NCBI GenBank assembly: GCA_045535075.1
Contig: JAZSKX010000018.1
Span: 288,001 to 352,000, forward strand
Origin: Candidatus Spyradenecus sp.
GTDB lineage: Bacteria > Verrucomicrobiota > Verrucomicrobiia > Opitutales > UBA953
DNA: 64,000 bases
Direction of reading: 5' to 3'
Shown: piece after piece, positions 30,762-60,725 of the stretch
Position numbering within the stretch: position 1 is the stretch's first letter
Layout: each line of letters starts with the position of its first letter
Notes under the pieces: model-generated
Databases searched by the model: none
Told to the model about the DNA's origin: nothing
What the model saw: only the letters and a program-made list of their open reading frames with translations
Program-made: the position numbers and the translations under genes

Positions 30762-30775
30762 GACGTTATCCGATA

Positions 30776-31354: not shown

Positions 31355-31375
31355 TTTCTGATTCTCTCCTGATTA

Positions 31376-31633: not shown

Positions 31634-31635
31634 GA

Positions 31636-32004: not shown

Positions 32005-32024
32005 AATTCTTACCTCCTGGGGAA

Positions 32025-32312: not shown

Positions 32313-32331
32313 GGTTAAATAATGTGGATGA

Positions 32332-32550: not shown

Positions 32551-32604
32551 TTTTGTGTGAAAGGGCGATAAAATAGTTTTCAGTCGCAGAATGCAATACT
32601 TATT

Positions 32605-33036: not shown

Positions 33037-33065
33037 TGGATTTTCCTTTCTCTATAGGAGTGGAA

Positions 33066-33695: not shown

Positions 33696-33714
33696 AGTCT
33701 AAAATTGCGGATGG

Positions 33715-34050: not shown

Positions 34051-34061
34051 GTGGAACTAAG

Positions 34062-34412: not shown

Positions 34413-34415
34413 GAA

Positions 34416-34691
34416 TTAGACAGCTTTCTTCGTAGGAGCCGTATGAGCCTTGAACGTGCGCGTCGGCGCAAATTCACCGAGCTTGTGGCCAACCATGTTT
34501 TCCGTCACATAAACGGGAACAAAAACTTTCCCGTTGTGAACGTTGAGGTTGAGTCCGACAAAGTCCGGCGTCACCGTGGAGCGACGCGACCAGGTTTTAA
34601 TCGGCTTGTGATCTCCGGCTTTCTGTGCCGCTTGAACCTTCTCCATGAGAGATGCTTCGACATAAAAGCCTTTTTTGATTGAACGTGCCAT
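34416..34691 (-). CDS. rpsS: 30S ribosomal protein S19
   Basis: [20 protein letters not shown]. Confidence 0.98.
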
Positions 34692-34697
34692 TGTCTA

Positions 34698-35555
34698 TTA
34701 GCCCTTCTTAACTTTGCGTCCGTTGCGACGAACAATAATATGAACGTTCGTGGACTTGGATTTAATGCGCGTCGGGAACCCTTTCGCGAGTTGTCCCCAC
34801 GGAGAAGAGAGGTGCTGGCGGCCACCGCCACCCTTGGACTTACCCTGACCCCCGCCGTTCGGGTGGTCAACCGGATTCATCACCATACCGCGAACACGCG
34901 GACGGCGTCCAAGCCAGCGATTGCGCCCTGCTTTGCCGAGCGTGCGGTTATAATGTTCGCCATTGCCGACATAACCGATGGTTGCACGGCAATCCGCGTT
35001 CAGATAACGCTGTTCTCCGGAAGGCATTTTGACGATAGCAAGATCGCCTTCGATACCGAGCAACTGAGCGGCATTACCGGCGGAACGCGCAATACGCGCC
35101 TTTTGACCGGGTTCCATCTGAATCGCATGAATAAAGGTCGCGGGAGCGATATAGCGCAGCTTGACCGTGCATCCCGGATTGAATTCTTCAACCGGATTCA
35201 TCGTCGAAACAACGGTATCACCGACTTTCAAACCTTCAGGAGCAAGAATGTAAGCTTTTTCCCCATCCGTGTATTGGATGAGAGCCAAGTTTGCCGAGCG
35301 GTTAGGATCGTACTCGAGAGCGAGAACGGTCGCCGGAATTTCAACTTTCGCACGACGGAAGTCCACCAAGCGATAGAGACGCTTGTGCCCTCCTCCGCGA
35401 CGACGCGAAGTAATGCGACCGTTATTGTTACGACCGCCGGTGCGATGCTTGGATTCAACCAAGTCTTTTTCCGGACGCTTTTTCGCGAGATCCTGCTTAT
35501 TGCGAACAAGGAAACGCTGCGAAGGCGTAAGCGGACGATTAGATTTGAGTGCCAT
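34698..35555 (-). CDS. rplB: 50S ribosomal protein L2
   Basis: [27 protein letters not shown]. Confidence 0.98.
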
Positions 35556-35581
35556 ATTATATGTTCCTCTATCTTAAAACG

Positions 35582-35869
35582 TTAAATGAGTTCAATCTTG
35601 TCACCCTTTTTGAGCGTGACGATTGCTTTTTTAACATCCGGAGCCTTGATGACTTCCCCGCGCTTCGTGCGGGATTGTTTCACCTTGCCCTTGGTGTTGA
35701 CAACATGAACGCGTTCGACGGTAACCTTAAAGGTCGCTTCAACCGCCTTGGCGATTTCCGGTTTCTCCGCATTCGGATAAACTTCAAAAACGTATTTGTT
35801 GGCTTCCGCGAGGGTAGCCGTCTTTTCGGAGACGAGCGGACGTTTGAGGACGCTGTATGCAGATTTCAT
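35582..35869 (-). CDS. rplW: 50S ribosomal protein L23
   Basis: PLVSEK; KKAIVTL. Confidence 0.97.
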   Translation of the reverse strand: MKSAYSVLKRPLVSEKTATLAEANKYVFEVYPNAEKPEIAKAVEATFKVTVERVHVVNTKGKVKQSRTKRGEVIKAPDVKKAIVTLKKGDKIELI

Positions 35870-35883
35870 AATGAATATTCTCC

Positions 35884-36504
35884 TTATTGAGCGCGTTCGA
35901 TGATTTTCTGCAAACCTTGTTCGCTGACCAAAACCTGATCAAAAGCAACAAGATCCAACGCATTGAGCGTTGCGGCATCCGTAACGGAAACACGTTCGAT
36001 ATTGCGGATGGAAAGCACCGTATTGTCGTCCCATGCTTCAGAGACGATGAGCATTTTTCCTTTCGGGAAAACCTTCGAGAAGACCGAAGCCATAATTTTC
36101 GTCTTCGGTTGAGCAGCTTCAAAGCGTTCAATGACGCTCAATCCGCCTTCGTTCGCCAAATCAACAAGCGCACGTGCGAATGCAAGCTTTTTCATTTTAG
36201 CATTAATCGACTTGGACCAATCGCGCGGACGCGGACCAAATACAACACCGCCCTTGTAAAGTTGCGGAGCGCGCTTGTCGCCGTGACGAGCACCGCCCGA
36301 ACCTTTTTGCGGACCTTGTTTTTTACCGGATCCGGCAACTTCGCCATAGTCTTTCGTTTTGGCGCTTCCCTGACGAAGATTCGCCTGATAAGCGACAATC
36401 GCCTGTTTCAACGCTGCAACGCCCTTGCCTTCTTCAAGCTGCGGGAGCGCAAATTCTTTTTCAGCGCAGGAGCTTCCGTCAACTGTGTAAACTTTAAGTT
36501 TCAT
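35884..36504 (-). CDS. rplD: 50S ribosomal protein L4
   Basis: QKGSGGARHG; GGVVFGPRPR. Confidence 0.97.
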   Translation of the reverse strand: MKLKVYTVDGSSCAEKEFALPQLEEGKGVAALKQAIVAYQANLRQGSAKTKDYGEVAGSGKKQGPQKGSGGARHGDKRAPQLYKGGVVFGPRPRDWSKSINAKMKKLAFARALVDLANEGGLSVIERFEAAQPKTKIMASVFSKVFPKGKMLIVSEAWDDNTVLSIRNIERVSVTDAATLNALDLVAFDQVLVSEQGLQKIIERAQ

Positions 36505-36519
36505 CGTTCAGTTCTCTCC

Positions 36520-37155
36520 TTATTTTGCTTTTTTCGCTTCACGAACATAGACCAAATCCCCATTCGCTCCGGGAATGCTTCCCTTGATGAGAATGAGATT
36601 TTGATCTTCGACAATCTTAACGACCGTAAGATTCTGCGTCGTGCGACGAACCTGTCCCATATGTCCCGGCATGTCTTTTCCCTTAAAGACGTGTCCCGGC
36701 GTCTGACGCATCCCGATAGAACCCGGGCGACGGTGCATCATGTGACCATGGGAAGCCGGCTGTCCGGCTTGGTTGTGGCGCTTAACGTTACCTTGGAAGC
36801 CGCGACCTTTGGTCGTTCCGATAACGTCAACAATTTGACCTTCTTTGAAAGTCGTGACGGTAAGTACGTCTCCGACTTTATATTCGGGAGCTTTGTCGTC
36901 AAAGCGGATCTCGCTCAGCACGGAGTGCGTTTCGATTCCGGCTTTGGCAAAATGCCCTTGAACGGGCTTTGTCAAACGCTCTTTTTTCTGGGCGCCGTAG
37001 GCAATTTGTACGGCATTGTATCCGTCAGACTCAGCGGTCTTGACTTGAACAACAGGGCACGGACCCGCTTGAACCACGGTTACGGGAACGAGATTGTCGT
37101 TCCCGTCGTAGATTTGGGTCATCCCAATTTTTTTGCCAATCAGTTGTAACTTCAT
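36520..37155 (-). CDS. rplC: 50S ribosomal protein L3
   Basis: GKKIGMTQ; KGRGFQG.VKRH; RPGSIG. Confidence 0.98.
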   Translation of the reverse strand: MKLQLIGKKIGMTQIYDGNDNLVPVTVVQAGPCPVVQVKTAESDGYNAVQIAYGAQKKERLTKPVQGHFAKAGIETHSVLSEIRFDDKAPEYKVGDVLTVTTFKEGQIVDVIGTTKGRGFQGNVKRHNQAGQPASHGHMMHRRPGSIGMRQTPGHVFKGKDMPGHMGQVRRTTQNLTVVKIVEDQNLILIKGSIPGANGDLVYVREAKKAK

Positions 37156-37298
37156 TTTGTCTAAGAGGCAGGTGGAGGTTTAATTCCGTTTGCACAGACC
37201 TGCTTTAGGCTGCTAAATCTCGTTTATTTCGATTCTTTTACAGTCCTAAGGCTATCCGAAAACGAAAATTTTCAGTTATTGATTACGATTTAGCAGGC

Positions 37299-37607
37299 TT
37301 AGACATTAATGCTAATATCAACGCCTGCGGGAAGATTCAGTTTCTTGAGTTCATCGACCGTTTGAGCAGTCGGACCGATGATATCAATCAAGCGCTTGTG
37401 TGTGCGCTGTTCAAATTGATCCATCGACTTTTTGTCAACGTGCGGCGAGCGGTTAACCGTCCAACGCTCAATAGAGGTCGGAAGCGGCACCGGGCCGGAA
37501 ACGCGAGCGCCGGTGCGCTTCGCGGTTTCGACAATATCGCCGGCAGACTGATCGATTACTCGATAGTCAAAGCCTTTGAGTTTAATACGAATTTTTTGAC
37601 GAGCCAT
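37299..37607 (-). CDS. rpsJ: 30S ribosomal protein S10
   Basis: [25 protein letters not shown]. Confidence 0.98.
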
Positions 37608-37637
37608 AGCTGTAAAAACTGAAGTTAAATGTTAGAA

Positions 37638-39788
37638 TTACGAGCGAGCCGGAGCACGGGAAGCCGTTTCTACGATTTCCTTGAGCACATTCGCGGGAAC
37701 CTGTTCAAAGTGATCCGGTTCCATCGTATAGGAAGCACGACCCTTCGAAAGCGAGCGAACGTCCGTCGCATAACCGAACATCGTCTGGAGCGGAACCATC
37801 GCATTGATGGTGCAAACACCGTTCTTGGTCTCCATGTTCTGAATCTGACCGCGACGGCGATTCAAGTCGCCCATGATATCTCCTTGGTATTCTTCCGGCG
37901 TAACGACTTCAACCTTGGTAATCGGCTCGAGGAGAATCGGAGCAGCCTTCGCCATTGCATCCTTAAGAGCAAAGATACCTGCCATTTTGAACGCCATTTC
38001 GGAGGAGTCGACTTCGTGGAACGAACCAAATACGATGCGCGCTTTGAAGTCGATGACCGGATATCCGGCAATCGTCCCGTTGTTCGCCGCTTCCTGAATC
38101 CCTTCGATCGTCGGCTTGATATATTCCTTCGGGATAACGCCACCGACGATTTCGTTGATGACTTCAATGCCCTTGCCCGGATTCGGTTCGATTTCGATTT
38201 CGGCATGACCGTATTGACCACGACCGCCGGACTGACGAACGAACTTTCCGATACCGCGAGAATTGCCCGTGATCGTTTCACGGTAGGAAATCTGCGGACG
38301 ACCGGATTTTGCTTCGACCTTAAATTCGCGACGCAGACGGTCGACGATAATATCGAGGTGAAGCTCGCCCATTCCGGAGATAATGGTTTGCCCCGTTTCC
38401 TGGTCGGAAGAAACACGGAAAGTCGGGTCTTCCTGAGCAAGGCGTTGGAGACCGATGGAAAGTTTTTCCTGGTCAGCTTTCGTCGCAGGCTCAATCGCCA
38501 TCGAGATAACCGGTTCCGGGAACGACGGCGGTTCGAGGATAATATCTTCTTCGCGCGTGCAAAGCGTATCACCCGTTACGATTTCTTTCGGACCGATAAC
38601 AGCGCAAATATCTCCGGAGTAAGCCGTATCAATTTCTTCGCGATCCATCGCCTTCATAATCATGAGGCGGGAAACACGTTCCGTCTTGCGGGTACGCGGA
38701 TTGTAAAGAGCGTCACCTTTCTTAAGCGTTCCGCGATAGACGCGGAAGAAGACGAGCTGTCCGACATACGGGTCAGACCACAGCTTGAAGCAAAGTCCGA
38801 TCGGCTTTGCATTATCGTCCGGTTCGACTCCGATTTCGGTTTCTCCATCGTCCTTAAACGCCTTCATCGGCGGAAGGTCGAGCGGAGACGGCAAGTAATC
38901 GACAACGCAGTCGAGAACCATCTGAACGCCTTTATTCTTGAAAGAGGAACCCGGGATAACACCGACGAATTCAAGCGAAAGCGTTGCCTTACGGATAGCG
39001 ACACGAAGTTCGTCTGCGGAAATTTCTTCGCCGCCGAGATATTTTTCGGCAATCGTATCGTCAAAGTCGGAAACTGCTTCGATAAGACCTTCGCGATACT
39101 TGTCATAGTCCGCCTTCATATCTGCGGGAACATCCGTTACCGTGTAGCGCATCCCCTTCGGGTCGGAATCATCATAAACGTATGCACAGCCCTTGACGAG
39201 GTCAACAAGACCCGCAAAGGTGTCACCGGCTCCGATCGGGATGTAAAGCGGGTGTGCGTTCCCGCGAAGTTTTTCACGAATTCCGTTAACGGCATTGAAG
39301 AAATCAGCACCCGTGCGGTCCATCTTATTGATGTAAGCAATGCGCGGGACGCTGTACTTGTTCATCTGACGCCAAACGGTTTCAGATTGCGGCTGAACAC
39401 CGGCAACCGCACAGAAAACGGCAACAGCTCCGTCAAGCACGCGAAGCGAGCGTTCGACTTCCGCCGTAAAGTCCACGTGACCGGGCGTGTCGATAACATT
39501 CAAGCGGTGCGGAATTTTTGCAAACGGACCGTCAGCAACCGTCCATCCGCAGGAAACGGCAGCCGAGGTAATCGTGATACCGCGTTCCTGTTCCTGCTCC
39601 ATCCAGTCGGTCGTAGCAGCGCCTTCGTGAACTTCACCCGTTTTGTGGATGACGCCCGCGTAGAAGAGAATACGTTCGGAAGTCGTGGTTTTACCGGCGT
39701 CAATGTGAGCGGCAATACCGAAGTTACGTGTGTATTCCAACGGAGCTTTGCGCCCGGAGGAGTTTTTGCTGGAAAGTGCGGCGGCCAT
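37638..39788 (-). CDS. fusA: elongation factor G
   Basis: AHIDAGKTT, RGITI, DTPGHVDF, NKMD, GMGELHL. Confidence 0.98.
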   Translation of the reverse strand: MAAALSSKNSSGRKAPLEYTRNFGIAAHIDAGKTTTSERILFYAGVIHKTGEVHEGAATTDWMEQEQERGITITSAAVSCGWTVADGPFAKIPHRLNVIDTPGHVDFTAEVERSLRVLDGAVAVFCAVAGVQPQSETVWRQMNKYSVPRIAYINKMDRTGADFFNAVNGIREKLRGNAHPLYIPIGAGDTFAGLVDLVKGCAYVYDDSDPKGMRYTVTDVPADMKADYDKYREGLIEAVSDFDDTIAEKYLGGEEISADELRVAIRKATLSLEFVGVIPGSSFKNKGVQMVLDCVVDYLPSPLDLPPMKAFKDDGETEIGVEPDDNAKPIGLCFKLWSDPYVGQLVFFRVYRGTLKKGDALYNPRTRKTERVSRLMIMKAMDREEIDTAYSGDICAVIGPKEIVTGDTLCTREEDIILEPPSFPEPVISMAIEPATKADQEKLSIGLQRLAQEDPTFRVSSDQETGQTIISGMGELHLDIIVDRLRREFKVEAKSGRPQISYRETITGNSRGIGKFVRQSGGRGQYGHAEIEIEPNPGKGIEVINEIVGGVIPKEYIKPTIEGIQEAANNGTIAGYPVIDFKARIVFGSFHEVDSSEMAFKMAGIFALKDAMAKAAPILLEPITKVEVVTPEEYQGDIMGDLNRRRGQIQNMETKNGVCTINAMVPLQTMFGYATDVRSLSKGRASYTMEPDHFEQVPANVLKEIVETASRAPARS

Positions 39789-39819
39789 TGTAAATATGCT
39801 CGACTTTTTCGGTTAAAAA

Positions 39820-40299
39820 TTAGTTACCCCAGCGAAGGTGCGCGAAAGCGCGGTTCGCCTGAGCCATTTTGTGAGTTTCTTCGCGTTTTTTAACAACCGT
39901 TCCCGTGTTGTTGTACGCATCAATGAATTCGGCGGCCAACGATTCCGTCATCGGCTGCCCCTTACGCGCAGAAGCCGCATTGACGAGCCAACGGAAGGCC
40001 ATGCTTGTCTGACGCTCATGGGAAATTTCAACCGGAACCTGATAGGTTGCCCCGCCGACGCGGCGGCTTTTAACTTCCAATTTCGGGCGGCAATTTTCCA
40101 ATGCGCCGAGGAGAAGTTCCATCGGATCACCCTTTTCAAGTTTTTCGCTAACGCGCTCAATCGCGCCATAGACAATGCGCTGAGCAACCGTCTTTTTGCC
40201 GTTTTTCATAACGACATTGATGAGCTGGCTCACAAGCGGGCTGTTATAACGTGCATCCGGTTGGTGCACTTTTTTCGTTGCTTTACGACGACGTGACAT
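39820..40299 (-). CDS. rpsG: 30S ribosomal protein S7
   Basis: [24 protein letters not shown]. Confidence 0.98.
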
Positions 40300-40322
40300 T
40301 GCAAAAGTCTCCTATAGCTTAA

Positions 40323-40703
40323 TTATTTTCCGCCTTTCGGACGTTTAACGCCATATTTCGAGCGGCTACGACGACGTTTTTCAACGCCTGCGCAGTCGAG
40401 CGGACCGCGAACAATGTGATAACGCACACCCGGCAAGTCCTTGACACGGCCACCGCGAATCAAAACGACGCTGTGTTCCTGAAGCTTGTGTCCTTCGTCC
40501 GGAATATAGGAAATAACTTCCGTTCCCGTCGTAAGGCGAACTTTCGCAACTTTACGTTGAGCGGAATTCGGCTTTTTAGGCGTACGCGTCATAACCTGAA
40601 TGCAGACGCCGCGTTTGAACGGCGAGCAATTCAAGGCGGGTGATTTCGACTTGATGTTGGCTTTAGCCCGCGGCTTGCGGACGAGTTGATTGATTGTTGG
40701 CAT
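40323..40703 (-). CDS. rpsL: 30S ribosomal protein S12
   Basis: [30 protein letters not shown]. Confidence 0.98.
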
Positions 40704-42068: not shown

Positions 42069-42188
42069 ACGCGTTCGAAAAGTAAACGAATCACGCAATC
42101 CGGGAAACCTTTCGTTCCCGCGGCTTTAGCTTTCTCTTGCTTTTTGCGGGAAGGAATGAAATGCTTTGCGCCCGTTTTTTTTTCAAAA

Positions 42189-46795: not shown

Positions 46796-49486
46796 TCATT
46801 TGAGACAAGTTTTCAAATACGGAGCAGTCGGCGAACGCTTAATTTTCAACAAACCGTTCGGGGCGCCTTGGTAGAGGACGTAGCCGCCGTCGTTCCCGCC
46901 GACGGGACCGATTTCGACAATCCAATCCGCTTCGGCAATCACATCCAAATGATGCTCAACAATGATGATTGTGTGCCCCTCATCGGCGAGGCGATGCACA
47001 AGCTTGAGCAGCTTCACGCAATCTGCCTGATGCAAGCCGATTGTCGGCTCTTCGAGAATGTAGCAATTTTTCTTCATCGCCTCGGCTCCGCCCTTACCCA
47101 TGCGTTCTTTCCACGACGGGAGCGCGGTAACAAGCTCGCTGACAAGTTTGAGGCGTTGCGATTCTCCGCCCGAAAGCGTCGGCGAACTCTGCCCGAGCGT
47201 CAGATAGCCGAGTCCGCATTCGCACATGAGCGTGCAGATTTCCTGAAGTTTTTTGTGAAAGGAGAAAAATTCAGCGGCCTCGGCGAAAGTCATCGCAAGC
47301 ACATCGGCGATATTCTTCCCGTTCCAACGAATATCTTCGACGGCGGGCGAATAACGCGTTCCCGCGCAATCTTCGCAAACGACGTTGGCATCAGGCATAA
47401 AATTCATTTCGAGTTTGATGCTTCCCGCGCCGGCGCAGGTTTCGCAGCGTCCGCCCTTGGTATTAAAGGAAAAAAATCCCGCACCGTACCCGCGCATTTG
47501 CGATTCGGGCAAAGTCGCGAAAACATTTCTGATAATATCGAACGCGCCGATGTATGTCGCCGGCGTCGAACGCGATGTTTTGCCGATAGGCTCCTGCGAG
47601 ACAACGACAATTTTGCGAAAATGCTCAACGCCGGAAACCTCGTCGAAGGCAAGTTGCTCGTCGTCATCAGCAATAATGCGTTCCCGCAAAGCATGTTTTC
47701 CGGAAAGTGTTTTCATTTTTCCCGAAACGGCAAAAGCAAGCGACGGCGCAAGCAAGTCGCTCACAAGCGTGGATTTTCCCGCTCCGGAAACGCCGCAGAC
47801 GACGCTTACGCAGCCGACGGGGAAACGGACATCTTCGCCTTTCAGATTGCGTAAGCAGGCATTTTTAATTTCGACAACGGGAACATTTCTTACATTGCGA
47901 CGCTTCCCGCGCATCGGATGCACGATGCCTTCCCGCAAAAATTTCAGGGTCAAAGAATTTTTCTCTTTTTGCGCGCCGGATTCCAAATCATTCGGCGTTC
48001 CCGCGAAAAGAATCTCGCCTCCGTGCGTTCCCGCGCCGGGGCCCAAGTCAATCACGCGGTCGGCGGCGCGCATCGTTTCTTCGTCGTGCTCGACAACAAG
48101 CAATCCGTTTCCGCGATCGCGCAGATTTTTCAGCGATTTGATTAAATCAGCGTTGTCGCAGGGATGAAGCCCGATGCTGGGTTCGTCCAAGACGTAAAGT
48201 ACGCCGGAAAGATTGGAGCCGAGCTGCGCCGCGAGACGAATGCGTTGTGCTTCGCCGCCGGAAAGCGTATTGCTTGCACGATCAAGCGAAAGATAGCTCA
48301 ACCCGACACCGTCAAGAAACTTCAGACGGGAACGAATTTCGGGAACGACACGTGCGGCGATTGCCTTTCCGCGAGCATCAAGCTCAAGGCATTCTAAGCT
48401 CGCGAGCAATTTTTTCGGTGTCATTGCCAACAATTCCGGCAACGAGCACTCTGTCGTTTTCTTTCCGTTTCTAATGCTTACCGAAACTGCGCGAGAAAGC
48501 GGATTGAGCCGTGCGCCGCCGCACTCCGGGCAACGCTTCGCGGAAACGACGTCCGACAATGCATCCTCGTTCAACGCGCCTTCCTTCGCGCCCCAAGATT
48601 CGACAATGCGCCCGTGCCCGCGACAAGCCGGGCACCATCCGCGCGGAGAATTCCACGAAAAATCTTTCGGATCAAGTTCGGGAAATGCTTCCCCGGTTTT
48701 AGGGTCGATACGTTCCCGGGAAAACCATTCCAACGCGTTCCCGCGATCGTCCAAAACAACGCAAGATTTCTTTCCCAGCTCTAGCGCCTTTTTGACGGAA
48801 GCAACGATATCTTTTCCGCGTTTCAAATCACAAAGCACCAATTCGATGTCGTGTTCGCGATAGCGATCCAATGGTTTGAAATCCCGAAGCTCGATTAATT
48901 GCCCATCGGCACGCATCCGCTCAAATCCGTGTTCGATTGCCCAAGTCGCCAACGGGCCGTGGTGCCCCTTGCGATTGCGAATGACCGGCGCGGCAAGCCA
49001 AAGCGCTTTTGCCGATTTTGATTTTTCCCGAACCAATGCTTCGATGCGGCGCACAACATCGTCAAGCGTTCCCGCGACCAAGGGCGTTCCCGTGAGCGGA
49101 TTGTGCATGATGCCGATTTTCGCAAAAAGCAAACGCAGGTATTGTGCGACCTCGGTGACGGTTGCAACCGTGGATTTGGCGCTCCCGCGCGTAACGCGTT
49201 GTTCGATGGCGACAGTCGGCGGCAAGCCCTCGATAACATCAGCGTCCGGGCGCGGCAACTGCTCGACGAATTGGCGGGCGTATGCGCTCATGCATTCCAT
49301 GAAGCGGCGTTGTCCTTCGGCAAAAACGACATCGAACGCGAGCGTCGATTTCCCGGAGCCGGAAAGCCCGGTAACGACAACCAATTCGTTCAGCGGAATA
49401 TCAAGAGACACATTTTTCAGATTGTGTTCCCGCACTCCGCGCAGGCGAATCACGCTTGAATCAGCCCAATCGTCGTTCGATTTCAT
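46796..49486 (-). CDS. uvrA: excinuclease ABC subunit A-like ATPase
   Basis: EHNLKN, GLSGSGKS, CxxC zinc motifs, LSGGEAQR, GVSGAGKS, LSGGESQR. Confidence 0.88.
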   Translation of the reverse strand: MKSNDDWADSSVIRLRGVREHNLKNVSLDIPLNELVVVTGLSGSGKSTLAFDVVFAEGQRRFMECMSAYARQFVEQLPRPDADVIEGLPPTVAIEQRVTRGSAKSTVATVTEVAQYLRLLFAKIGIMHNPLTGTPLVAGTLDDVVRRIEALVREKSKSAKALWLAAPVIRNRKGHHGPLATWAIEHGFERMRADGQLIELRDFKPLDRYREHDIELVLCDLKRGKDIVASVKKALELGKKSCVVLDDRGNALEWFSRERIDPKTGEAFPELDPKDFSWNSPRGWCPACRGHGRIVESWGAKEGALNEDALSDVVSAKRCPECGGARLNPLSRAVSVSIRNGKKTTECSLPELLAMTPKKLLASLECLELDARGKAIAARVVPEIRSRLKFLDGVGLSYLSLDRASNTLSGGEAQRIRLAAQLGSNLSGVLYVLDEPSIGLHPCDNADLIKSLKNLRDRGNGLLVVEHDEETMRAADRVIDLGPGAGTHGGEILFAGTPNDLESGAQKEKNSLTLKFLREGIVHPMRGKRRNVRNVPVVEIKNACLRNLKGEDVRFPVGCVSVVCGVSGAGKSTLVSDLLAPSLAFAVSGKMKTLSGKHALRERIIADDDEQLAFDEVSGVEHFRKIVVVSQEPIGKTSRSTPATYIGAFDIIRNVFATLPESQMRGYGAGFFSFNTKGGRCETCAGAGSIKLEMNFMPDANVVCEDCAGTRYSPAVEDIRWNGKNIADVLAMTFAEAAEFFSFHKKLQEICTLMCECGLGYLTLGQSSPTLSGGESQRLKLVSELVTALPSWKERMGKGGAEAMKKNCYILEEPTIGLHQADCVKLLKLVHRLADEGHTIIIVEHHLDVIAEADWIVEIGPVGGNDGGYVLYQGAPNGLLKIKRSPTAPYLKTCLK

Positions 49487-51774: not shown

Positions 51775-51805
51775 CAAGGTTTTAATTTTTCTAAAACTAA
51801 AATCT

Positions 51806-53230
51806 ATGGAACAAATCGCAGACGTTCTCGCTCAACGCTACGCCACGGAACCGATTCGCAAAATCTGGTCGGCAACCGGACGCATCATCCTCGAACGCGA
51901 ATTTTGGATCGCCGTCATGCGCGCTCAGCGCGACCTCGGGCTCGACATTCCCGCTGAAGCCATTGAGGCTTACGAACGCGTCAAGGAAAACGTCAATCTC
52001 GATTCCATCAACGCGCGGGAACGCATCACGCGCCACGACGTCAAAGCCCGTATCGAAGAATTTTGCGATCTCGCCGGCTTTGAGCACATTCACAAGGGAA
52101 TGACTTCCCGCGACCTCACGGAATCCGTCGAACAGCTTCAGGTTTTCCGCTCGCTCGAATACATTCGCCTCAAAACCGTCGCCGCCGTCAAACGCCTCGC
52201 CGAGCGTGCCGCAGAAACGCGCGACATTGCGATGACTTCCCGCACGCACAACGTTGCGGCACAGCTCACGACTTTCGGCAAGCGTTTCGCGATGTTCGGC
52301 GAAGACATGCTCGTCGCTCTGCGGGAGCTCGACGCGCTTATCGCCAACTACCCGGCGCGCGGCGTAAAAGGTGCCGTCGGCACGCAACTCGATCTGCTCA
52401 CGCTGTTTGACCACGATGTCGAAAAGGCGATGGAATTTGATTCCCGCGTCCGCAAGCACCTCGGCATTCCGCACGCATTCAATGCAACGGGGCAGGTTTA
52501 CCCGCGCTCGCTCGATTTTGCGACGATTTCCACGCTCGTCCACATTGGCTCCGGCGCGTCCAGCTTCGCGAAAACGTTGCGCCTGATGGCGGGGCACGAG
52601 CTCGCCAGCGAAGGCTTCCTGCCGGGACAAGTCGGCTCGTCGGCGATGCCGCACAAAATGAATTCCCGCAGCTGCGAACGTTTGAACGGTCTGCACGTCA
52701 TTTTGAAAGGCTATCTCGCTATGGCGGCGGATCTCGCCGGCGACCAATGGAACGAAGGCGACGTTTCCTGTTCCGTCGTGCGCCGCGTGGCGCTCCCGGA
52801 TTCCTTCTTCGCGATTGATGCGTTGCTCGAAACCTTCCTCGTCATTTTGAACCAGATGGAAATTAACGTTCCCGTCATTGAGCGCGAAAAGAATTATTAC
52901 CTGCCGTTCCTGCTGACGACGACCATCATGATGGAAGCCGTCAAACGCGGCGTGGGGCGCGAAACCGCGCACGAAGTTATCAAGGAACACGCCGTCGCCA
53001 CCGCGCGCGATATTCGCCAAGGCAAAATTTCGAACAATAACCTGTTCGACCGCCTCGCCGAAGACGGTCGCCTGAAACTTTCCCGCGACGATTTCGACGC
53101 GATCGCCAAAATCGCCGCCGCCGAAACGGGAACGGCAGGCATGCAGGTCGACAACTTTGTCGCCACCGCCAACGAACTTTTAGCAAAATTTCCCGCCGCC
53201 GCAGAAATCAAGCCCGGCGCAATTCTGTAA
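51806..53230 (+). CDS. purB: adenylosuccinate lyase
   Basis: RHDVKA, HKGMTSRD, SRTH, GSSAMPHKMN. Confidence 0.95.
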   Translation: MEQIADVLAQRYATEPIRKIWSATGRIILEREFWIAVMRAQRDLGLDIPAEAIEAYERVKENVNLDSINARERITRHDVKARIEEFCDLAGFEHIHKGMTSRDLTESVEQLQVFRSLEYIRLKTVAAVKRLAERAAETRDIAMTSRTHNVAAQLTTFGKRFAMFGEDMLVALRELDALIANYPARGVKGAVGTQLDLLTLFDHDVEKAMEFDSRVRKHLGIPHAFNATGQVYPRSLDFATISTLVHIGSGASSFAKTLRLMAGHELASEGFLPGQVGSSAMPHKMNSRSCERLNGLHVILKGYLAMAADLAGDQWNEGDVSCSVVRRVALPDSFFAIDALLETFLVILNQMEINVPVIEREKNYYLPFLLTTTIMMEAVKRGVGRETAHEVIKEHAVATARDIRQGKISNNNLFDRLAEDGRLKLSRDDFDAIAKIAAAETGTAGMQVDNFVATANELLAKFPAAAEIKPGAIL

Positions 53231-53256
53231 AAAATTAAGGCTTATTAAAGAAGCCT

Positions 53257-53299
53257 AAAAAAGCGTTCCCGTGAAATAAATCACGGGAACGCTTCTTCT
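53257..53299. terminator. bidirectional terminator formed by an inverted motif pair
   Basis: Perfect 14-bp arms AAGCGTTCCCGTGA-AATAAA-TCACGGGAACGCTT between convergent genes. Confidence 0.85.
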
Positions 53300-53325
53300 G
53301 TCTTTAACCGCGAATCTTTTTCCGC

Positions 53326-55365
53326 TTATTTCGCAGGACGTCCGTCAAAGAAGAAAACTTCAAAAGGCTTCAACGTGAAGGAGAGCTCCTTGTCGAGCGG
53401 AATCGTCGCGCCGGAAATCCCCTGGAGTTTTCGCTGTCCGCCCTTAAAGGAATCTTTCAGCGTAATAGAGCCCTGGACATGCGCGGGAACGTCGAGCAAT
53501 TGACGCAACGTCGCCGTAAGCGTTTTTTCGTCTTTAGAAGAATTGCGCAAGGCGAGAGTCGCCTTTTTTCCGTTCCAGGAAGCCCAACCGTAGATGTCTC
53601 CGCATTTTTTTTCGTTGTCCCACGGATTGCCGCCGACCCAGTGAGCGTCGTCGAGCACATCGGCGTTCCCGCGGAACCACTTGATGCACTCGGCAAGTTC
53701 TTTCCAGAGATCGAGTTTCGTCATGATGTCGTTATCGACATAAAGCTCCTGCAAGGCGCTCCCGCTGGCGAACGCACAACGCATTTCCTTGAGAATGTCG
53801 TCGCGTCCGTCGGCGTTGTTTGCCATGCAATTCGGCGGTCCGTGGCGGGTTATCATGAGTCCGTGCGTCATGATTGAATTAATCGGGCACAGCGGCGAGC
53901 CTTGAACAAAGACTTCGTAAACAAGGCGATCTCGATAGGTAATCCATTTATTTCGATTATTCCCGTCTCCGATGCCGCCATGGTCGTTTTCCTGTCGCCA
54001 AATGGAGTCTGCAATGTGAAACCAAAACGGCGAAGCCCATGTGCCGACGGTCGTATTGAGGAAAATATCCGGGCGTTTTTTACGAAGAGCTTTCTCAACT
54101 TTGATAATGCCTTCTGCGTCTTCCTCTCCTCCCGGACCTTTCGCGTGGAATTTCGTGCTGATCCCGTCGAACTTGAAATAGCGCATGTCGTAATCGGCAA
54201 CCATTTGCGAACAACGCCCGACGAACGCGTCGAAGTATTCCTTGTTCGAAAGCTCAAAATTGCCGATTTGGTTGTTCGGGTGATTTTTATTCCAATAGCC
54301 GAGACGCTGAGTCTTGGACGCGCCGTAGCCGCCGACGGGCCCAAGCCAAGCACCCATTCCCGCGCCTTGCTTCAGCGCTGCGGTATTGAGTTTTTCAAAA
54401 CCGTTCGGGAACCCGCTGTGGAAGCCCCAGAGCGAATTAAAATCGTCCCAGCCGTCGTCCCAAACGAACGCGTCAACACCGATTTTATGTTTTTTGAAAA
54501 GGTTTTTGTTCCACTCTTCAATGACATCGAGGCATTGTTTTTCCGACATGCGGTTCTTCGGATCCGGGTCGTTGTTGCGGTTGATGTTGAGCTCATACCA
54601 CGAATTGTAGTGGACAAACGAGCGCCACGGCACAGCGCGTTCCCGCTCATTGTAAGCGAGGAAGGAGCGGCGCTCCTGCCCGGGAACGAGAGCTCCGATA
54701 ACGGAGGAAACATCCCAGATTTCGCCCTTTTTCAGCGTGGTTTTACGCGACCATTTTCCCGTCATCGTGTCGCCGGAAACTTCGTTAAGCGCCATCGGCG
54801 TTTCGAGCGCGGCAAAAACCTTTTCCGTTACGACGGGCGAGCCGCGCGTGTTCCCGAGGACTTTTGCTCCCGGAAGCTTGATTTCAAGCGGAACAATTGC
54901 CTGCATCGGAGTATCGGCCTTCGCCTTAATTTTCAGCTCTTGGCGGATGTAATGCGAGCCGTCGCGCAAAACCGCGCGCCATCTTACGGAAAGATTGCCT
55001 TTGCTGAACGTGCCGACGATTGCCTGCCCGGCAAAACGTTCGGAAAGTTTGACGGCTTTCGGATTCGCTTTGAGAGCAACTTTCTTAAGCGTGCCCTTCA
55101 TTTGCGATGCTTTAATGATTTCACCGTCACCGAGAACAATCTTGAAAAGCTCATCCCCTTCGGCGACCGTTTTCCCGCCGAATTTTACTTCGAAACCCTT
55201 TTTTGCATCAAAACGCGCGGCAACAAGCTCGTTAGAAAGACGTGTCCCCGATGCAAGTGCAACGCCGGGCTGCTTCTCAGACGGGAACGCAACATCCGCA
55301 TTCAGCGCCGGAAGCGCCAATGCCAATAAAGTCAGTGTAAGGAAGATTTTCTTTAGGGATTTCAT
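53326..55365 (-). CDS. secreted glycoside-hydrolase-like protein (clan GH-D-like TIM barrel)
   Basis: Signal peptide; YNSWY, WDDGWD, GFPNG and YFKFDG motifs. Confidence 0.7.
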   Translation of the reverse strand: MKSLKKIFLTLTLLALALPALNADVAFPSEKQPGVALASGTRLSNELVAARFDAKKGFEVKFGGKTVAEGDELFKIVLGDGEIIKASQMKGTLKKVALKANPKAVKLSERFAGQAIVGTFSKGNLSVRWRAVLRDGSHYIRQELKIKAKADTPMQAIVPLEIKLPGAKVLGNTRGSPVVTEKVFAALETPMALNEVSGDTMTGKWSRKTTLKKGEIWDVSSVIGALVPGQERRSFLAYNERERAVPWRSFVHYNSWYELNINRNNDPDPKNRMSEKQCLDVIEEWNKNLFKKHKIGVDAFVWDDGWDDFNSLWGFHSGFPNGFEKLNTAALKQGAGMGAWLGPVGGYGASKTQRLGYWNKNHPNNQIGNFELSNKEYFDAFVGRCSQMVADYDMRYFKFDGISTKFHAKGPGGEEDAEGIIKVEKALRKKRPDIFLNTTVGTWASPFWFHIADSIWRQENDHGGIGDGNNRNKWITYRDRLVYEVFVQGSPLCPINSIMTHGLMITRHGPPNCMANNADGRDDILKEMRCAFASGSALQELYVDNDIMTKLDLWKELAECIKWFRGNADVLDDAHWVGGNPWDNEKKCGDIYGWASWNGKKATLALRNSSKDEKTLTATLRQLLDVPAHVQGSITLKDSFKGGQRKLQGISGATIPLDKELSFTLKPFEVFFFDGRPAK

Positions 55366-55557: not shown

Positions 55558-55603
55558 GGCGTCTCCGCGGGAACGATTGTCCTGCGGAGGCGCCATCATT
55601 TTT
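55558..55603 (+). terminator. 15-bp hairpin followed by T-tract
   Basis: GGCGTCTCCGCGGGA-ACGATTG-TCCTGCGGAGGCGCC-ATCATTTTT; G-U pairs favour the + strand. Confidence 0.65.
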
Positions 55604-55628
55604 CGTTCTCATATCCTCCTGTAACCCA

Positions 55629-55663
55629 AAGCCTTCCCGTTGTATTGCGGGAAGGCTTCTTTT
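55629..55663 (+). terminator. second terminator hairpin upstream of the PEP-CTERM gene
   Basis: AAGCCTTCCCGT-TGTATT-GCGGGAAGGCTT-CTTTT. Confidence 0.7.
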
Positions 55664-55728: not shown

Positions 55729-56538
55729 ATGAAAAACATAAAATTTCTCTCTTGCCTTACTTTCGCACTTTCGGGAGTAACTTCCGGCGTTTTTGCGGCT
55801 GACGCGACATTAAGCTATACGGATGCCTTCGGGATCGCCCAAAACCAATCGGAATCCTTAGGGTATTTCATTTTGGAAGAAAACGCCCGCGACGTCGTTT
55901 TCAACACGGGAACGAACTACCTTTTCAGTAAAGACCTATATCTCAACGCCGGACGCATTGAAAATCTTGAACTCATCGCGACGGGAAACGAAGACGACGC
56001 TCGCGTTTACAATAAGACGACGATCGACGGGAACGTCAAAATTTCGGGCGCAACCGGTTGCTTCTATTCTTACGGCGGAACGATTGAAAGCGGGGCACAC
56101 TTCACCCTAAACGGAGGGCGATTTGATTTCGCCAATTCGAGCTTACACAAATGGAAAATCGGAGAAGAAACGGGAACGCGCGCATTAATTTCAGGAACGG
56201 GAACCGTCACCATTCGTAATACGACATTGAATGGCGAAGCCTTTACTTCGTGGCTACAGCTGGATTTCGCGAACTATGATGTTTTAAAAAAGACGAAAAC
56301 GCTGAGTCTTGTCGACGCCGGAACTATCGTCGGTTCCGGATTAAATTTTCGCGATATCTCCGTCTTTGTCGACGGCTGGCAAGTTTTTGACTACACGGCA
56401 AGTCTGGACTGGAATTCCGACAGCGTAAATTTCGGCAAAATCTCAATCACGCATCCGATTCCGGAGCCGTCTGCTTTCGGCATGCTTGCCGGATTATGCG
56501 CCTTAGCGTTTGCGGGAACGCGCCGCCGTCACCAATAA
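55729..56538 (+). CDS. PEP-CTERM sorting-domain surface protein
   Basis: Signal peptide; C-terminal IPEPSAFGMLAGLCALAFAGTRRRHQ. Confidence 0.9.
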   Translation: MKNIKFLSCLTFALSGVTSGVFAADATLSYTDAFGIAQNQSESLGYFILEENARDVVFNTGTNYLFSKDLYLNAGRIENLELIATGNEDDARVYNKTTIDGNVKISGATGCFYSYGGTIESGAHFTLNGGRFDFANSSLHKWKIGEETGTRALISGTGTVTIRNTTLNGEAFTSWLQLDFANYDVLKKTKTLSLVDAGTIVGSGLNFRDISVFVDGWQVFDYTASLDWNSDSVNFGKISITHPIPEPSAFGMLAGLCALAFAGTRRRHQ

Positions 56539-56591
56539 AAAAAGCGTTCCCGCTTAAGCCGGCTTTCGCCGCACGGGAACGCTTCTCTTTT
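56536..56591. terminator. bidirectional terminator formed by an inverted motif pair
   Basis: A-tract, AAGCGTTCCCG (56542-56552), N21, CGGGAACGCTT (56574-56584), CTCTTTT, between convergent genes. Confidence 0.75.
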
Positions 56592-56617
56592 AGCCTTAAT
56601 CGTTAAGCTCTCAAAAC

Positions 56618-57850
56618 TTACATCATGTTTTCCGGACCGTTGACCTTGGCGTTCACCTTGAGGCGAAGCGCGTTCAGGTGGATGAAGCCGGAAGCGTCGT
56701 CCTGGTCGTAAGCATTGGTCGGGTCGGCTTCCATCGTCGCGATGTCCGGATTGTAGAGCGAGCACGGCGACTTGCGACCGGCAACGTAGCAGCAACCCTT
56801 GTAGAGCTTGACGCGCACCGTTCCCGTGACGTTTTTCTGCGTTTCCGTAACAAGTGCCTGCAACGCGAGGCGTTCCGGCGCATACCAAAATCCGTTATAA
56901 ACGAGTTCCGCATATTTCGGAATGAGGCTGTCGCGCAAGTGCATCGTATCGCGATCCATCGTGATGGATTCCATCTGGCGATGCGCGAAGAAAAGAATCG
57001 CTCCGCCCGGGGTTTCATAAACGCCGCGCGACTTCATGCCGACAAAACGGTTTTCAACCATGTCAACGCGCCCGATGCCGTGCTTTCCGCCGAGCTTGTT
57101 GAGCGTTTGCATCACTTCAAGCGGCGTCATCTTCTTGCCGTCGATGGCGACGCAGTTACCTTTTTCAAAATCGAGTTCGATAAATTCCGGTGCGTCGGGA
57201 GCGTCTTCCGGAGCGACGGAGAGTTTGAACATCGCCTTGTTTTCCGGGCAGAACGCGTCGAACCACGGATCTTCCATGATCCCGGCTTCGTAGGAAATGT
57301 GGAGCAAGTTGCGGTCCATCGAATACGGCTTTTTCATGCTCGCTTCGACGGGAAGCCCCTGCGCCACGCAGTAATCGATCATTTCCTTGCGCCCCGGGAA
57401 CTGCGCGCGGAACGTTTCGTCGCGCCACGGAGCGATGATTTTCAAATCCGGAGCGAGCGCGGCAGCGGCGAGCTCAAAGCGCACCTGGTCGTTGCCCTTG
57501 CCCGTCGCACCGTGAGCGATAGCGTCGCAACCTTCCGCCTTGGCGATTTCGACCATGCGTTTCGCGATAAGCGGACGCGCAATCGACGTGCCGAGGAAGT
57601 ATTGTCCTTCGTAAATCGCTCCCGCCTGCATCATCGGGAAAATGAAGTCGCGGGCAAATTCTTCCTGCAAATCTTCAATGTAAATTTTGGAAGCGCCGGT
57701 TTTCTTGCTCTTTTCTTCGAGCCCGGAAAGCTCTTCTTCCTGTCCGACGTTCGCGCAGTAAGCGACCATTTCGGCGTTGTATTTTTCTTTAATCCAGGAA
57801 AGGAGCACGGACGTGTCCAATCCGCCGGAATATGCGAGAAGAATCTTCAT
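56618..57850 (-). CDS. argG: argininosuccinate synthase
   Basis: [33 protein letters not shown]. Confidence 0.98.
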
Positions 57851-57888
57851 AGCAATGATTGTTTTGTGTGATTAAAAAGTAAGCGGGA

Positions 57889-57917
57889 ATCATGCGCCGC
57901 GTTCCCGCGAAAATCAA
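57889..57917 (-). promoter_or_regulatory. sigma70-like promoter of argG
   Basis: Minus strand TTGATT-N17-CATGAT. Confidence 0.45.
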
Positions 57918-58043
57918 CGCGGAATTTAGCAATAAAGCGTAGAAACCGTAAACTGCCGTAAATATTTTTAGCCGCGGGCAGCACGATTTTCTCGGATGTT
58001 TTTCAAAAAGCTCCGCGAAAAATAATCCGCTCCGCCCGTGAAA

Positions 58044-58880
58044 CTATTTTCCGGCGGAAACGAACCCCTTCAGCCAAGCTTCCGCGAGTTGCGGCCAAAC
58101 AAGCCCGACGCCGGATCGCATGCCGTAGCCGTGCCCGCCTTTCGACAAATAATGCAAATCCACGGGACGGCGATTCGCACGCATCGCCTCCGCCATCACC
58201 AACGCGCTTCGGCTACTATAATAATAATCGTCGAGCGTCCCGAAAATGAACATCGGCGGCGTGTTCGCCGAAACCTTGAGCTCCGGCGTCAGGCTGTGCC
58301 CGGGACCGCCGTCGAGATACGCCGGATAAATCAACATCGCAAAATCGGGACGGCAACTGAGCTTGTCGGCAGCGTCCCGCGGCGGATAAAGCGTTTCCTC
58401 AAATCGCGTTGCCGCACGTGCAGAAAGGCTCGCTCCCGCAGAAAAACCGATGACTCCGACTTTCTCCGGCGCGTATTTTTCCCGCACGACACGAATCGCA
58501 CGCTGAAGATCCTGCAACGCGCCGTTCGGATTCGCGGGAACGCGATATGCCAGCGTAAACGCCGTAAAACCCCGGCGCGCCAGCCACTGCGCGACCTCGG
58601 TTCCTTCCTTGTCGTAAGAAAGCACCTGATACGCGCCGCCGGGGCAAACAATGACGGCAACGCCGTTCGGCTCCTTTTCGGGAAGAGCAACTTCCAAGGT
58701 CGGGTTCGAAACCCGCGTCAGGCGAATTACGCCCTTTTCCGTTTTTGTGTCGGTAACGTGCTTTTCCCCAGGCGTATTTTCTGCGGGAACGCTCGGCTTC
58801 CAAATTTCGATGATTTCCGCATGAACAGCGGCAGAAAGGCAAAACGCGAGACAAGTAACGGCAACAAGAATTTTTCTCAT
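58044..58880 (-). CDS. secreted alpha/beta hydrolase (carbohydrate esterase-like)
   Basis: CPGGAY, GFSAG nucleophile elbow, GGHGYG; signal peptide. Confidence 0.88.
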   Translation of the reverse strand: MRKILVAVTCLAFCLSAAVHAEIIEIWKPSVPAENTPGEKHVTDTKTEKGVIRLTRVSNPTLEVALPEKEPNGVAVIVCPGGAYQVLSYDKEGTEVAQWLARRGFTAFTLAYRVPANPNGALQDLQRAIRVVREKYAPEKVGVIGFSAGASLSARAATRFEETLYPPRDAADKLSCRPDFAMLIYPAYLDGGPGHSLTPELKVSANTPPMFIFGTLDDYYYSSRSALVMAEAMRANRRPVDLHYLSKGGHGYGMRSGVGLVWPQLAEAWLKGFVSAGK

Positions 58881-59018
58881 GAGAAGAAAGCCTAGCGTTT
58901 TTTTCGCGACAGGCAAAAAAATGTTCCCGCAAGAAAATCCCGCGGGAACGATTTTTCTGTTTCCAAAGAAACTTTCTTCGGAGAAGCCGACCAAACTTAT
59001 CAGCTTCTAAGCCACAAA

Positions 59019-60725
59019 CTACTTATCCAAACCCCAGCGTTCCCGTAGCCAGCGTTCAACGGGCGCGAAGCAAAGCCGGTCCATGACCAAGCCGACAAGG
59101 ATAATAACGAGCATGACCCCGTAAACTTTTTCGACATTCATTTCTTCGCGTCCGGCGTTGAGCATCCAGCCCAAACCGATGCCGCTGAAAATATAAACAT
59201 AAATTTCGGCAGACATCAGCGAGCGCCACGCAAACGCCCAGCCTTGCTTCATACCGGAGAAAATTAACGGGAGCGCCGCCGGGAACATCACGTGCGTCCA
59301 CAGGTGAAAATGCTTCGAGCCCATTGTCCGCGCGGCACGCACATAAAGCGGCGGGACGGAACGAATCCCGCTTTCCGTCGCCAACATGAGCGACCAAACC
59401 GAACCCATAACGACAACCGTCAGGATTGCCCATTCGTCCTGCCCGAAAATCACAAGCGAAATCGGCACCCAACAAACGCTCGGCAGAGCTTGAAACCCGA
59501 GCGCCAAAACGCCGAGCGTGCTACGCATCAGCGCACTTTGCGCCAGCAAAAGCCCGAGCGGAAGCGCAATCGCAAATCCGATGGCGTAGCCCAAAAGCAG
59601 GCGACGCATCGTTACGACAAGAGCGCTCAAAATCGAACCGTCCCAAACGCCGTCCCAAAGAAAACCTGCGATTTCCGACGGTAACGGGAACACGCCGGCG
59701 CGCATTTTCGGCGGAAGCTCCGTCGTTTGAACCAAATCTTCGACTTCGATTTTTTCCGGAATCATTCCCGTTCCGAAGCCGTCGTTGACATATTCGGCGA
59801 GCGATTTTTTGTTTACTTCGCCGACAAACTTGATGCGCGGGAACGCGTTGTTGACGATACGCATCGGGAATTCCGCGTGCGTTTCCCGCGTAAGCGCGCG
59901 CTGGAGCAAAACCTTTGCTTCGTCCGGATGGGCGTTAATCCAAGCCGTCAATTCGCCGTGCGCTTTAGCAAAGGCATTCAACAGTTTTCGCCGCTTCGTC
60001 AGCGTTTCCGTCGAAGCCGCCAAAACGGTCGTTACCGAGGCGTAATCTTCGAGAAAAATTTTTCCGCCGGTTTCCAATTCGAGACGCGAAACCCACGGCT
60101 CGACGGTCCAAGCAGCTTCAAGCGTTCCCGTGCGGAAAAGCGCAAGTTGATCCGGATTTTTGGTCGGCGCAATTTGCACTTTCGCGTCGTTCTGCCCGGC
60201 AGGAATTCCGCTTTTAATTAACCACGCGCGGCAGGCAACGTCCTGCGTATTGCCGAGTTGGGGCGTTGCGATTTTTTTGCCGATAAAATCCTCCGGGCGC
60301 GTTCCCGTGAAATCGCCGCGCACGACAAGTGCCGCGCCGCCTTCGGCGCTCCCGCAAACGATGCGTACGGCGCCCTGCCGGCGAATGTACGCATTGATTG
60401 CCGGCGACGGGCCGACGTACGACATATCAATCGAGCCGATGGTCAAGCCTTCCATCGCCGACGGGCCGGCGTTGTAGGGTTGCCAAAAAAGTTTCGTTCC
60501 CGCAGGAAGCCGCGCCTCAAACCACGGCTTGCCTTCGAGCGCCAATTGCTGGGCAATAAGCGCCTGAGCGTGCGTGATATTCGGGAAATAGCCGACGCGC
60601 AATTCGTTTTCCGAGGCTGTTTTTTTCTTTAACGAAAAATCCGAAAGCCAATCGCTGCGCCCGACAAATTCGAGCCCGGCAATGAGCGCCACCGCAAAGA
60701 GAATGTAGAAAATAACACGTTTCAT
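59019..60725 (-). CDS. SsuA/TauA-like substrate-binding domain fused with SsuC-like ABC permease
   Basis: GYFPNITHA...PQLGNTQD (SBP) and AARTMGS...PAALP...WRSL.SAE (permease EAA loop). Confidence 0.88.
   Translation of the reverse strand: MKRVIFYILFAVALIAGLEFVGRSDWLSDFSLKKKTASENELRVGYFPNITHAQALIAQQLALEGKPWFEARLPAGTKLFWQPYNAGPSAMEGLTIGSIDMSYVGPSPAINAYIRRQGAVRIVCGSAEGGAALVVRGDFTGTRPEDFIGKKIATPQLGNTQDVACRAWLIKSGIPAGQNDAKVQIAPTKNPDQLALFRTGTLEAAWTVEPWVSRLELETGGKIFLEDYASVTTVLAASTETLTKRRKLLNAFAKAHGELTAWINAHPDEAKVLLQRALTRETHAEFPMRIVNNAFPRIKFVGEVNKKSLAEYVNDGFGTGMIPEKIEVEDLVQTTELPPKMRAGVFPLPSEIAGFLWDGVWDGSILSALVVTMRRLLLGYAIGFAIALPLGLLLAQSALMRSTLGVLALGFQALPSVCWVPISLVIFGQDEWAILTVVVMGSVWSLMLATESGIRSVPPLYVRAARTMGSKHFHLWTHVMFPAALPLIFSGMKQGWAFAWRSLMSAEIYVYIFSGIGLGWMLNAGREEMNVEKVYGVMLVIILVGLVMDRLCFAPVERWLRERWGLDK

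Follow-up and report, generated by a model that had tools for sequence, protein, structure and literature searches.

Uptake tags, i.e. short words by which self DNA is taken up, have been described for the Neisseriaceae and the Pasteurellaceae (PMC3630211; bioRxiv 10.1101/2025.10.24.684340). In the Neisseriaceae, the DUS is a short asymmetric word repeated thousands of times over both strands, in genes as well as in spacers, and reaches nearly 6,000 copies in 2.4 Mb in its richest dialect; genes are exchanged among the species that share the word, and a slow decay is foreseen upon loss of specificity (PMC3630211). In the USS of the Pasteurellaceae, the inner core is strict and the outer positions are tolerant (PMC3458573). 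Both words have been co-opted into terminators, in the case of the DUS as inverted pairs with a strong orientation bias (PMC1852404, section 13), and Kingsford et al. found such pairs in 55% of the terminators of Neisseria and 17–29% of those of the Pasteurellaceae (PMC1852404), the explanation given in section 13 being that abundant words provide ready-made stems. The cyanobacterial HIP1 (GCGATCGC) is an octamer present in roughly at least one copy per gene and held as DNA; it is linked to two methylases and enhances transformation (PMC13756078), and a chromosomal role has been discussed for it (PMC5861425).

The word described here, CGGGAACG, or more fully (Y)(Y)RCGGGAACG(C), also written (R)CGGGAACG(C), shares with the DUS all of the traits listed above, including a copy density like that of the richest dialect; with the USS, the strict core, the tolerant outer positions and the co-option into terminators; and with HIP1, the octamer length, the number of copies per gene, the hold at the DNA level and the proposed link to transformation. 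It differs from the DUS in being an unrelated 8–9-mer of another phylum, with no ComP_DUS pilin or ComEA found, with A/T tails outside the word and, in the genus, decay but no dialect, its uptake role being putative. It differs from the USS in its sequence, in lacking phased T tracts and in supplying a higher share of the terminators (40%), and from both in that the DUS and the USS bring their own tail, whereas this word does not. HIP1 is palindromic and has two conserved methylases, whereas the present word is asymmetric and places two copies in each stem. The system would work like DUS and USS yet is a member of neither, having another sequence, another phylum and no ComP. Terminators made of word pairs are a known phenomenon; the word system behind them is a novel variant. 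We found no published description of the word, of the genus or of uptake in this group; supplementary tables of surveys of over-represented words could list it.

The window (the whole 64,000-nt stretch of DNA that was analysed) belongs to an assembly of 1.95 Mb from a genus of uncultured gut Verrucomicrobia, 99.45% complete and hereafter called G000, whose genes were called with our own dicodon model. It contains 140 dispersed copies on both strands (positions 1–64000), and the whole assembly 5,159, i.e. one per 378 bp. Predicted genes hold 4,319 of them, nearly all single, and the spaces between genes 836, so that 84% are genic, in contrast to the DUS; the genic number falls to 387 after synonymous codon shuffling, an eleven-fold difference. 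Copies occur on both strands and in all six frames without replication polarity, the strand counts on oppositely skewed contigs (e.g. 410:331 and 430:579) being explained by gene direction. The force that holds the word acts on the DNA, not on the protein. Single mismatches do not exceed expectation at CGG and at the first A (ratios 0.21–0.98), while those at the other four positions are mostly 1.5–4.7 fold above it. The 7-mer has a median spacing of 207 bp and a mild over-dispersion, with 461 gaps under 31 bp vs 621 expected. The word is thinned to 0.92 per kb in the ribosomal-protein operon (22179–40703), and to 0.35–0.56 per kb in two other regions of the genome (G000:C16:186500-220300 and C8:21000-35200) that we take, from a reading of their genes, to be prophage-like; the early genes of these two regions appear by eye to be related to each other. 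Among viral contigs, four stretches carry a terminator-type pair at low word density.

Across the genus, the 9-mer is present in 3,060–5,581 copies in 15 of 19 genomes and in 340–760 in the four others, G214, G216, G218 and G219, compared with maxima of 176 in 118 other genomes of the family and of 234 in 191 genomes of the order outside the family. The fuller consensus AAGCGTTCCCG(Y) that had been proposed from the window is not supported. Of the 204 paired intergenic copies, 106 have TT directly after CGGGAACGC, compared with 37 of the 274 unpaired ones (background 10.9%) and 226 of the 1,961 in coding sequence (background 8.1%). This concentration indicates that the AAG suggested as part of the word belongs for the most part to the A/U tail of terminators. 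No phased T tracts accompany coding copies up to 25 nt from the core.

The original prediction presented nine stems in the window as intergenic terminators built from inverted pairs of the motif. The quoted sequences are present at all nine places, and three are exact GTTCCCG...CGGGAAC pairs at a gene end, the six others not being exact pairs. The first, at 53261–53294, is indeed perfect, with a 14-bp inverted repeat, a 6-nt loop and U-rich tails on both sides (z of -8.1 and -8.0 on the two strands when folding is compared with shuffles), and follows purB by 30 nt and, from the other side, a convergent gene of 679 aa by 31 nt, as a predicted bidirectional intrinsic terminator. One contig assembled from RNA runs stops near 53313 with unaligned letters, such contigs being unable to show RNA 3' ends. 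The same arms had been claimed for 56542–56584, and arms of 11 bp are found there (z of -4.4 and -5.5), forming with a long inner arm a predicted bidirectional terminator between a convergent PEP-CTERM gene and argG. The third exact pair, at 58923–58949 on the minus strand, is the predicted terminator of an ABC-transporter gene (59019–60725). Three further stems stand at gene ends with one exact arm each, or part of one, their partner being variant or partial: 16863–16882 (plus strand), the predicted terminator of gene 16203–16841 just upstream of gltX, pairs an exact arm with a one-mismatch arm through a G.U pair; 22123–22155 (minus strand), predicted to terminate transcription after rplQ, pairs an exact arm with the commonest variant; and 16155–16178 (plus strand), the predicted terminator of gene 15774–16142, partly overlaps one copy and contains no pair.

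The three remaining stems are not terminators made of the word. At 42101–42120 there is no T tail, and 54 of 200 shuffles fold equally well (z of -0.53). The stems at 55558–55594 and 55629–55658 are strong hairpins, but they lie upstream of both divergent neighbours (55558–55658), not at a gene end, one with a single copy and the other with a double variant. They are found 70–170 nt upstream of the PEP-CTERM gene; the second has a U-rich tail and its double variant is compensatory. These two hairpins may possibly correspond to an attenuator or to the end of a small RNA. An Rfam search of the window gave no match. Overall, the exact pair is used at 5 of the 13 gene ends of the window having a predicted terminator.

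At the genome scale, terminators were predicted with a simple scanner of our own, requiring a hairpin and a T tail and blind to the word. It finds one behind 405 of 1,576 genes: 169 contain an exact pair in the preferred orientation, 4 a reversed one, 50 one exact arm, 10 two near arms and 172 no word. In terms of distinct hairpins, word pairs account for 136 of 341 (about two in five), the remaining 60% or so having no exact pair. With 60 shuffled words as controls, the mean was 0.07 pairs and the maximum 1. This share is within the published range of 17–55% for Pasteurellaceae and Neisseria (PMC1852404). The preferred orientation is marked, with 181 intergenic pairs within 30 nt in the order GTTCCCG...CGGGAAC vs 20 in the reverse, and these pairs peak sharply at a gap of 12 nt. 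When the same word copies were re-placed randomly inside each spacer, pairs proved to exceed what local word density provides in convergent spacers (60 of 196 vs 18.4 +/- 3.5) and in tandem ones (103 of 1,048 vs 28.4 +/- 4.6), but not in divergent spacers (7 of 203 vs 4.2 +/- 1.6, maximum 9). Pairs in tandem spacers stand at a median of 26 nt behind the stop codon; of 108 such cases, 80 have the T tail on the sense side and 18 on the opposite side. These spacer, tail and orientation tests are those used in PMC1852404. By position, orientation and tail side, the pairs are supported as predicted intrinsic terminators. The pattern extends across the genus, other genomes containing 245 (G160), 132 (G213), 79 (G214) and 15 (G216) pairs, and a sister-genus genome (G030) has none.

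Such pairs had also been taken as independent support for an uptake sequence. They do reveal a force at the DNA level and match the DUS/USS pattern, but the argument was overstated, as they do not indicate what reads the word: stems come ready-made with any abundant, asymmetric and GC-rich word, and predicted terminators are as numerous in a word-poor relative, so that pairs alone are no proof of uptake. Taking the evidence as a whole, we give a probability of about 60% to the word being a DUS-like tag for the uptake of self DNA, co-opted into predicted terminators. Its abundance, graded recognition, genus range and hold at the DNA level were counted in favor of the uptake tag, together with the terminator pairs, the competence machinery, the gene flow between species and the thinning in prophage-like regions. 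A type IV pilus/ComEC machine would prefer word-carrying DNA, and fragments with intact copies would replace mutated ones through biased uptake and recombination. With one copy per 300–400 bp, facing copies would often fall behind genes, where selection for termination would keep the orientation in which the U tail follows the G-rich arm and the loop encloses the purine-rich flank; the orientation bias would arise because this flank would clash with the U tail in reverse. Once the force had lapsed, the word would drift, and the hairpins would be kept by ordinary compensatory change.

Does the machinery contain a reader for this tag? ComEC, DprA and ComM are above cut-off in G000, which also has a ComF-like gene, a secretin, seven prepilins, PilT, two PilB-like ATPases and a PilC-like protein, with several pilus-protein matches below curated cut-offs. 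Pilus proteins resembling Amuc_1098/1100/1101 are present, this last set having been scanned as G218 orthologues, 76–97% identical. In the window, the 896-aa product of uvrA (46796–49486) falls below one model's equivalog cut-off and aligns in two stretches. ComEA was not found in G000, where the only HhH repeat lies within an 805-aa frame and below the TIGR00426 cut-off, and none of the seven pilins matches ComP_DUS. ComEC is present in 82 of 85 family genomes, word-less ones included, and the word-poor genomes have pilus genes, ComEC, DprA, ComF and ComM, mostly intact, the machine of G218 looking intact. Between G000 and G218, ComEC is 66% and DprA 77% identical, compared with a median of 87%. 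As the machinery is present in word-poor and word-less genomes, nothing in it tracks the word.

No reader protein was found. A gene-loss screen gave 236 of 1,576 G000 proteins missing or weak in the part of G218 examined, including some false absences (ComF was one), and two were tested genus-wide. The first encodes a 132-aa protein without family match (G000:C1:100340-100738, i.e. L268:640-1038), presumably TfoX-like, a label given by eye. Ten of the 19 genus genomes have it, and G218 clearly lacks it at the corresponding place in the gene order; it is absent in all four word-poor genomes, also in 5 of 15 word-rich ones, and present in three sister-genus genomes, and it was rejected as the reader. 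An MmeI-type gene was rejected as well, not being found in eight word-rich genomes and being 81% identical in the word-poor G214. A second secretin is present in all four word-poor genomes, but the type II secretion cluster is also found in three word-rich ones and in most of the family, and it was not retained as word-linked. This secretin occurs in 7 of 19 genus genomes and was not found in G000; the cluster is located in G218 at L213:6794-14835. A weak lead is an orphan pilin of 141 aa (G000:C5:99026-99451, i.e. L007:1489-1914), full-length in 18 of 18 genus genomes and matched by its N-terminal part only in 44 other family genomes. It evolves fast (46–91% identity), is 90–91% identical in the word-poor trio and resembles ordinary short pilins; a structure search gave no match at E 0.001, and the Atlas only N_methyl clusters.

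The word-poor genomes show how word and terminators come apart. In the ribosomal operon, G218 is 87% identical to G000, compared with 83% for G124 and 72–81% for G213, G059 and G082; the low count of G218 is thus a loss, since this genome is closer to G000 than these four word-rich ones. The reading of G218 covered about 2.06 Mb, overlaps included, and stopped short of contig C69, which is at least 45 kb long. In 1,207 orthologues, 641 of the 3,370 G000 word sites are kept in G218, which is the rate of GC-matched control 8-mers (0.20–0.29), and, in the opposite direction, 641 of the 806 G218 word sites are present in G000. By comparison, loci of 13 word-rich relatives keep 195 of 339 G000 sites vs 0.10–0.33 for controls, a count that includes the recently exchanged argG, and loci of three word-poor relatives keep 7 of 42, 3 of 11 and 6 of 129 (argG included). 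The force on the word has lapsed twice, in the lineage of the word-poor trio and in G216. The argG tree served only to place G216 apart from the trio, and kinship was taken from the ribosomal operon and other genes, as exchange distorts that tree. No replacement dialect was detected in the stretches scanned, 142 kb from G218 and 89 kb from G216. The top short repeats are of the AGATTAAAGA type in G218 (L120-L131, L107) and of the GGGTTGGTGG type in G216 (L132-L139, L051), and similar A-rich runs precede some terminators in relatives.

Terminators have followed another course. They are predicted at 410 of 1,541 gene ends in G218 vs 405 of 1,576 in G000, with equal mean stability, and 87 of the 410 contain exact pairs; coding copies of the word are down about four-fold, and terminator pairs two-fold. 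The paired terminators of 133 G000 genes were compared with the ends of the orthologues in G218: exact pairs are present at 39, a single arm at 14 and near arms at 11; a further 38 have an unrelated hairpin, and 31 no predicted terminator. For 72 of 100 distinct G218 hairpins that are in register, the 49 changed stem positions comprise 21 compensatory, 21 wobble and 7 broken changes, in a set chosen as hairpins, which favors pairing. Coding copies drifting at the neutral rate while hairpins are kept by compensatory change means that selection on stems and the force on the word are separable, and termination, as predicted here, does not need the word.

To follow gene flow, all 19 genus genomes were compared with 40 kb of the window, and five with another 20 kb, in search of tracts of at least 800 bp at 94–99% identity. 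Six gene tracts, about 8 kb in all, were found (10274–11713, 16866–18275, 51799–55160 and 56513–58888), comprising thyA-folA, gltX, purB, argG and two other genes. The partners, whose background identity to G000 is about 70–80%, are G213 for five (gltX, purB, the 679-aa gene, argG and a hydrolase gene), G059 for four (thyA-folA, gltX, purB and argG), G082 for two (gltX and argG) and G215 for argG alone. The purB gene (51806–53230, plus strand) is 98% identical in DNA to G213 and G059, and 85% to the closer word-poor trio. From the 53261–53294 hairpin on, positions 53257–55160 are 96% identical to G213, in the tract of the gene of 679 aa and of no known family (53326–55365, minus strand). For argG (56618–57850, minus strand), positions 56513–57930, including the second hairpin, reach 98% with G213, and the argG tract 97% with G082, 95% with G059 and 94% with G215, compared with 89–91% for the word-poor trio. 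The tract of an alpha/beta-hydrolase gene (58063–58888, minus strand), a gene not found in the part of G218 examined, is 96% identical to G213. The gltX tract (16866–18275, plus strand), which starts inside the 16863 hairpin, shows 99% with G213, 96% with G059 and G082, and 88–89% with the trio, and the thyA-folA tract (10274–11713, plus strand) 94% with G059. The tracts of G213 lie at five separate places in another gene order, and a 9.9-kb contig of independent origin, from run X1, is collinear from purB to the hydrolase gene with about 3–4% differences, which argues against a chimeric assembly. To judge from these identities, distant word-rich species have recently exchanged genes.

No tract is shared with the four word-poor genomes among the matches listed, identity being at most 91%; 1 of 1,036 orthologues is at least 94% identical between G000 and G218, and none of 861 contains a 600-nt stretch at 95%. 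This contrast between word-rich and word-poor genomes rests on one sister clade and G216. Ten of the 14 other word-rich genomes also have no recent tract among the matches listed for the 40 kb searched across the genus, and the word is thus not sufficient for exchange. Relatives' loci set side by side with G000 and G218 gave no clear extra tracts outside argG. The tracts could have been moved by transduction. Species of the genus differ greatly in gene order, with matches interrupted at nearly every gene. The 679-aa gene is conserved across the genus and covered by an RNA-library contig, with no NCBIfam or Pfam match.

The ends of these tracts bear on the best surviving alternative, which we consider improbable: that the word works on DNA already inside the cell, as a recombination or processing signal such as an unpolarised Chi-like site, or as a micro-homology anchor for gene-sized exchange between genomes that differ in gene order, terminators being a by-product, albeit one of use as an anchor where genes end. 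Of the 12 tract ends, three coincide with a flagged hairpin or word copy (16866, 53257 and 56513), two others have a copy no more than 40 nt into the tract, and in L042 the identity with the window ends right after a word copy beyond the argG hairpin. Since BLAST extends through any shared hairpin, these ends may be artefacts, in a sample of 12 where partner DNA was seen for argG alone. The short median spacing of the 7-mer suits a short-range effect, and uptake genes do not track the word, but the leading-strand polarity of the Chi or KOPS kind is absent.

A site for an abundant chromosome-organising or nucleoid protein, with purifying selection on each copy, is less probable still. It would account for the graded, asymmetric recognition and the mild short-range over-dispersion, and the density is near that of HIP1, for which a chromosomal role has been discussed (PMC5861425). 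On the other hand, no DNA-binding gene was found that tracks word-rich vs word-poor genomes, the best candidate being the 132-aa protein mentioned above; two lineages let the sites decay, and the gene-flow contrast would be left unexplained.

We regard as quite unlikely a drive linked to methylation in the manner of HIP1, in which an orphan methyltransferase would mark the word, and repair or methyl-dependent transformation would enrich it. G000 encodes an MmeI-type enzyme, and CGGGAAC has the shape of a site of that family, but the gene is patchy, as described above. No N6/N4 methylase was found in three word-rich genomes, G000 among them, C5 methylases are present in only 10 of 19, and thus no genus-wide methylase was found in the three families searched (MmeI, N6/N4 and C5), which also sets the word apart from HIP1. 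The non-palindromic sequence of the word and its unequally strict positions speak against such a drive as well. Hairpins of REP/MITE elements are likewise intergenic inverted repeats found behind genes. Such a mobile family, or a word spread from terminators or from a codon or peptide preference, is almost certainly not the explanation, for although the arms are near-identical at about 180 sites, the 180 pairs have 165 different loops, 4-bp flanking duplications occur at 1 of 180 vs 2 in controls, the window has no Rfam match, and most copies are single, coding, in six frames and eleven-fold above synonymous shuffles.

Returning to the uptake tag, a broader scenario is possible but tentative, in which it would represent a third independent origin of such tags, in the Verrucomicrobiota, word-rich species of only about 75% identity swapping entire housekeeping genes in spite of their differing gene order, with hairpins at gene ends helping to anchor the exchange, and decayed lineages dropping out. 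If true, a case without ComP in another phylum would mean that self-recognition in transformation arose again, and adding the word to DNA would be a practical route to the genetics of uncultured gut Verrucomicrobia. Because the word has lapsed twice independently, with word-rich relatives at hand for comparison, the force on it can be told apart from selection for termination, which the DUS and USS families offer poorly, and the genus permits testing whether a tag governs gene flow between species. As a minor observation, a metagenome scan with the 141-aa pilin gave two loci; in one of them (L311, 7.9 kb), whose pilin is 63% identical, the variant CGGAAACG occurs 16 times vs 12 for CGGGAACG, and may possibly be a dialect.
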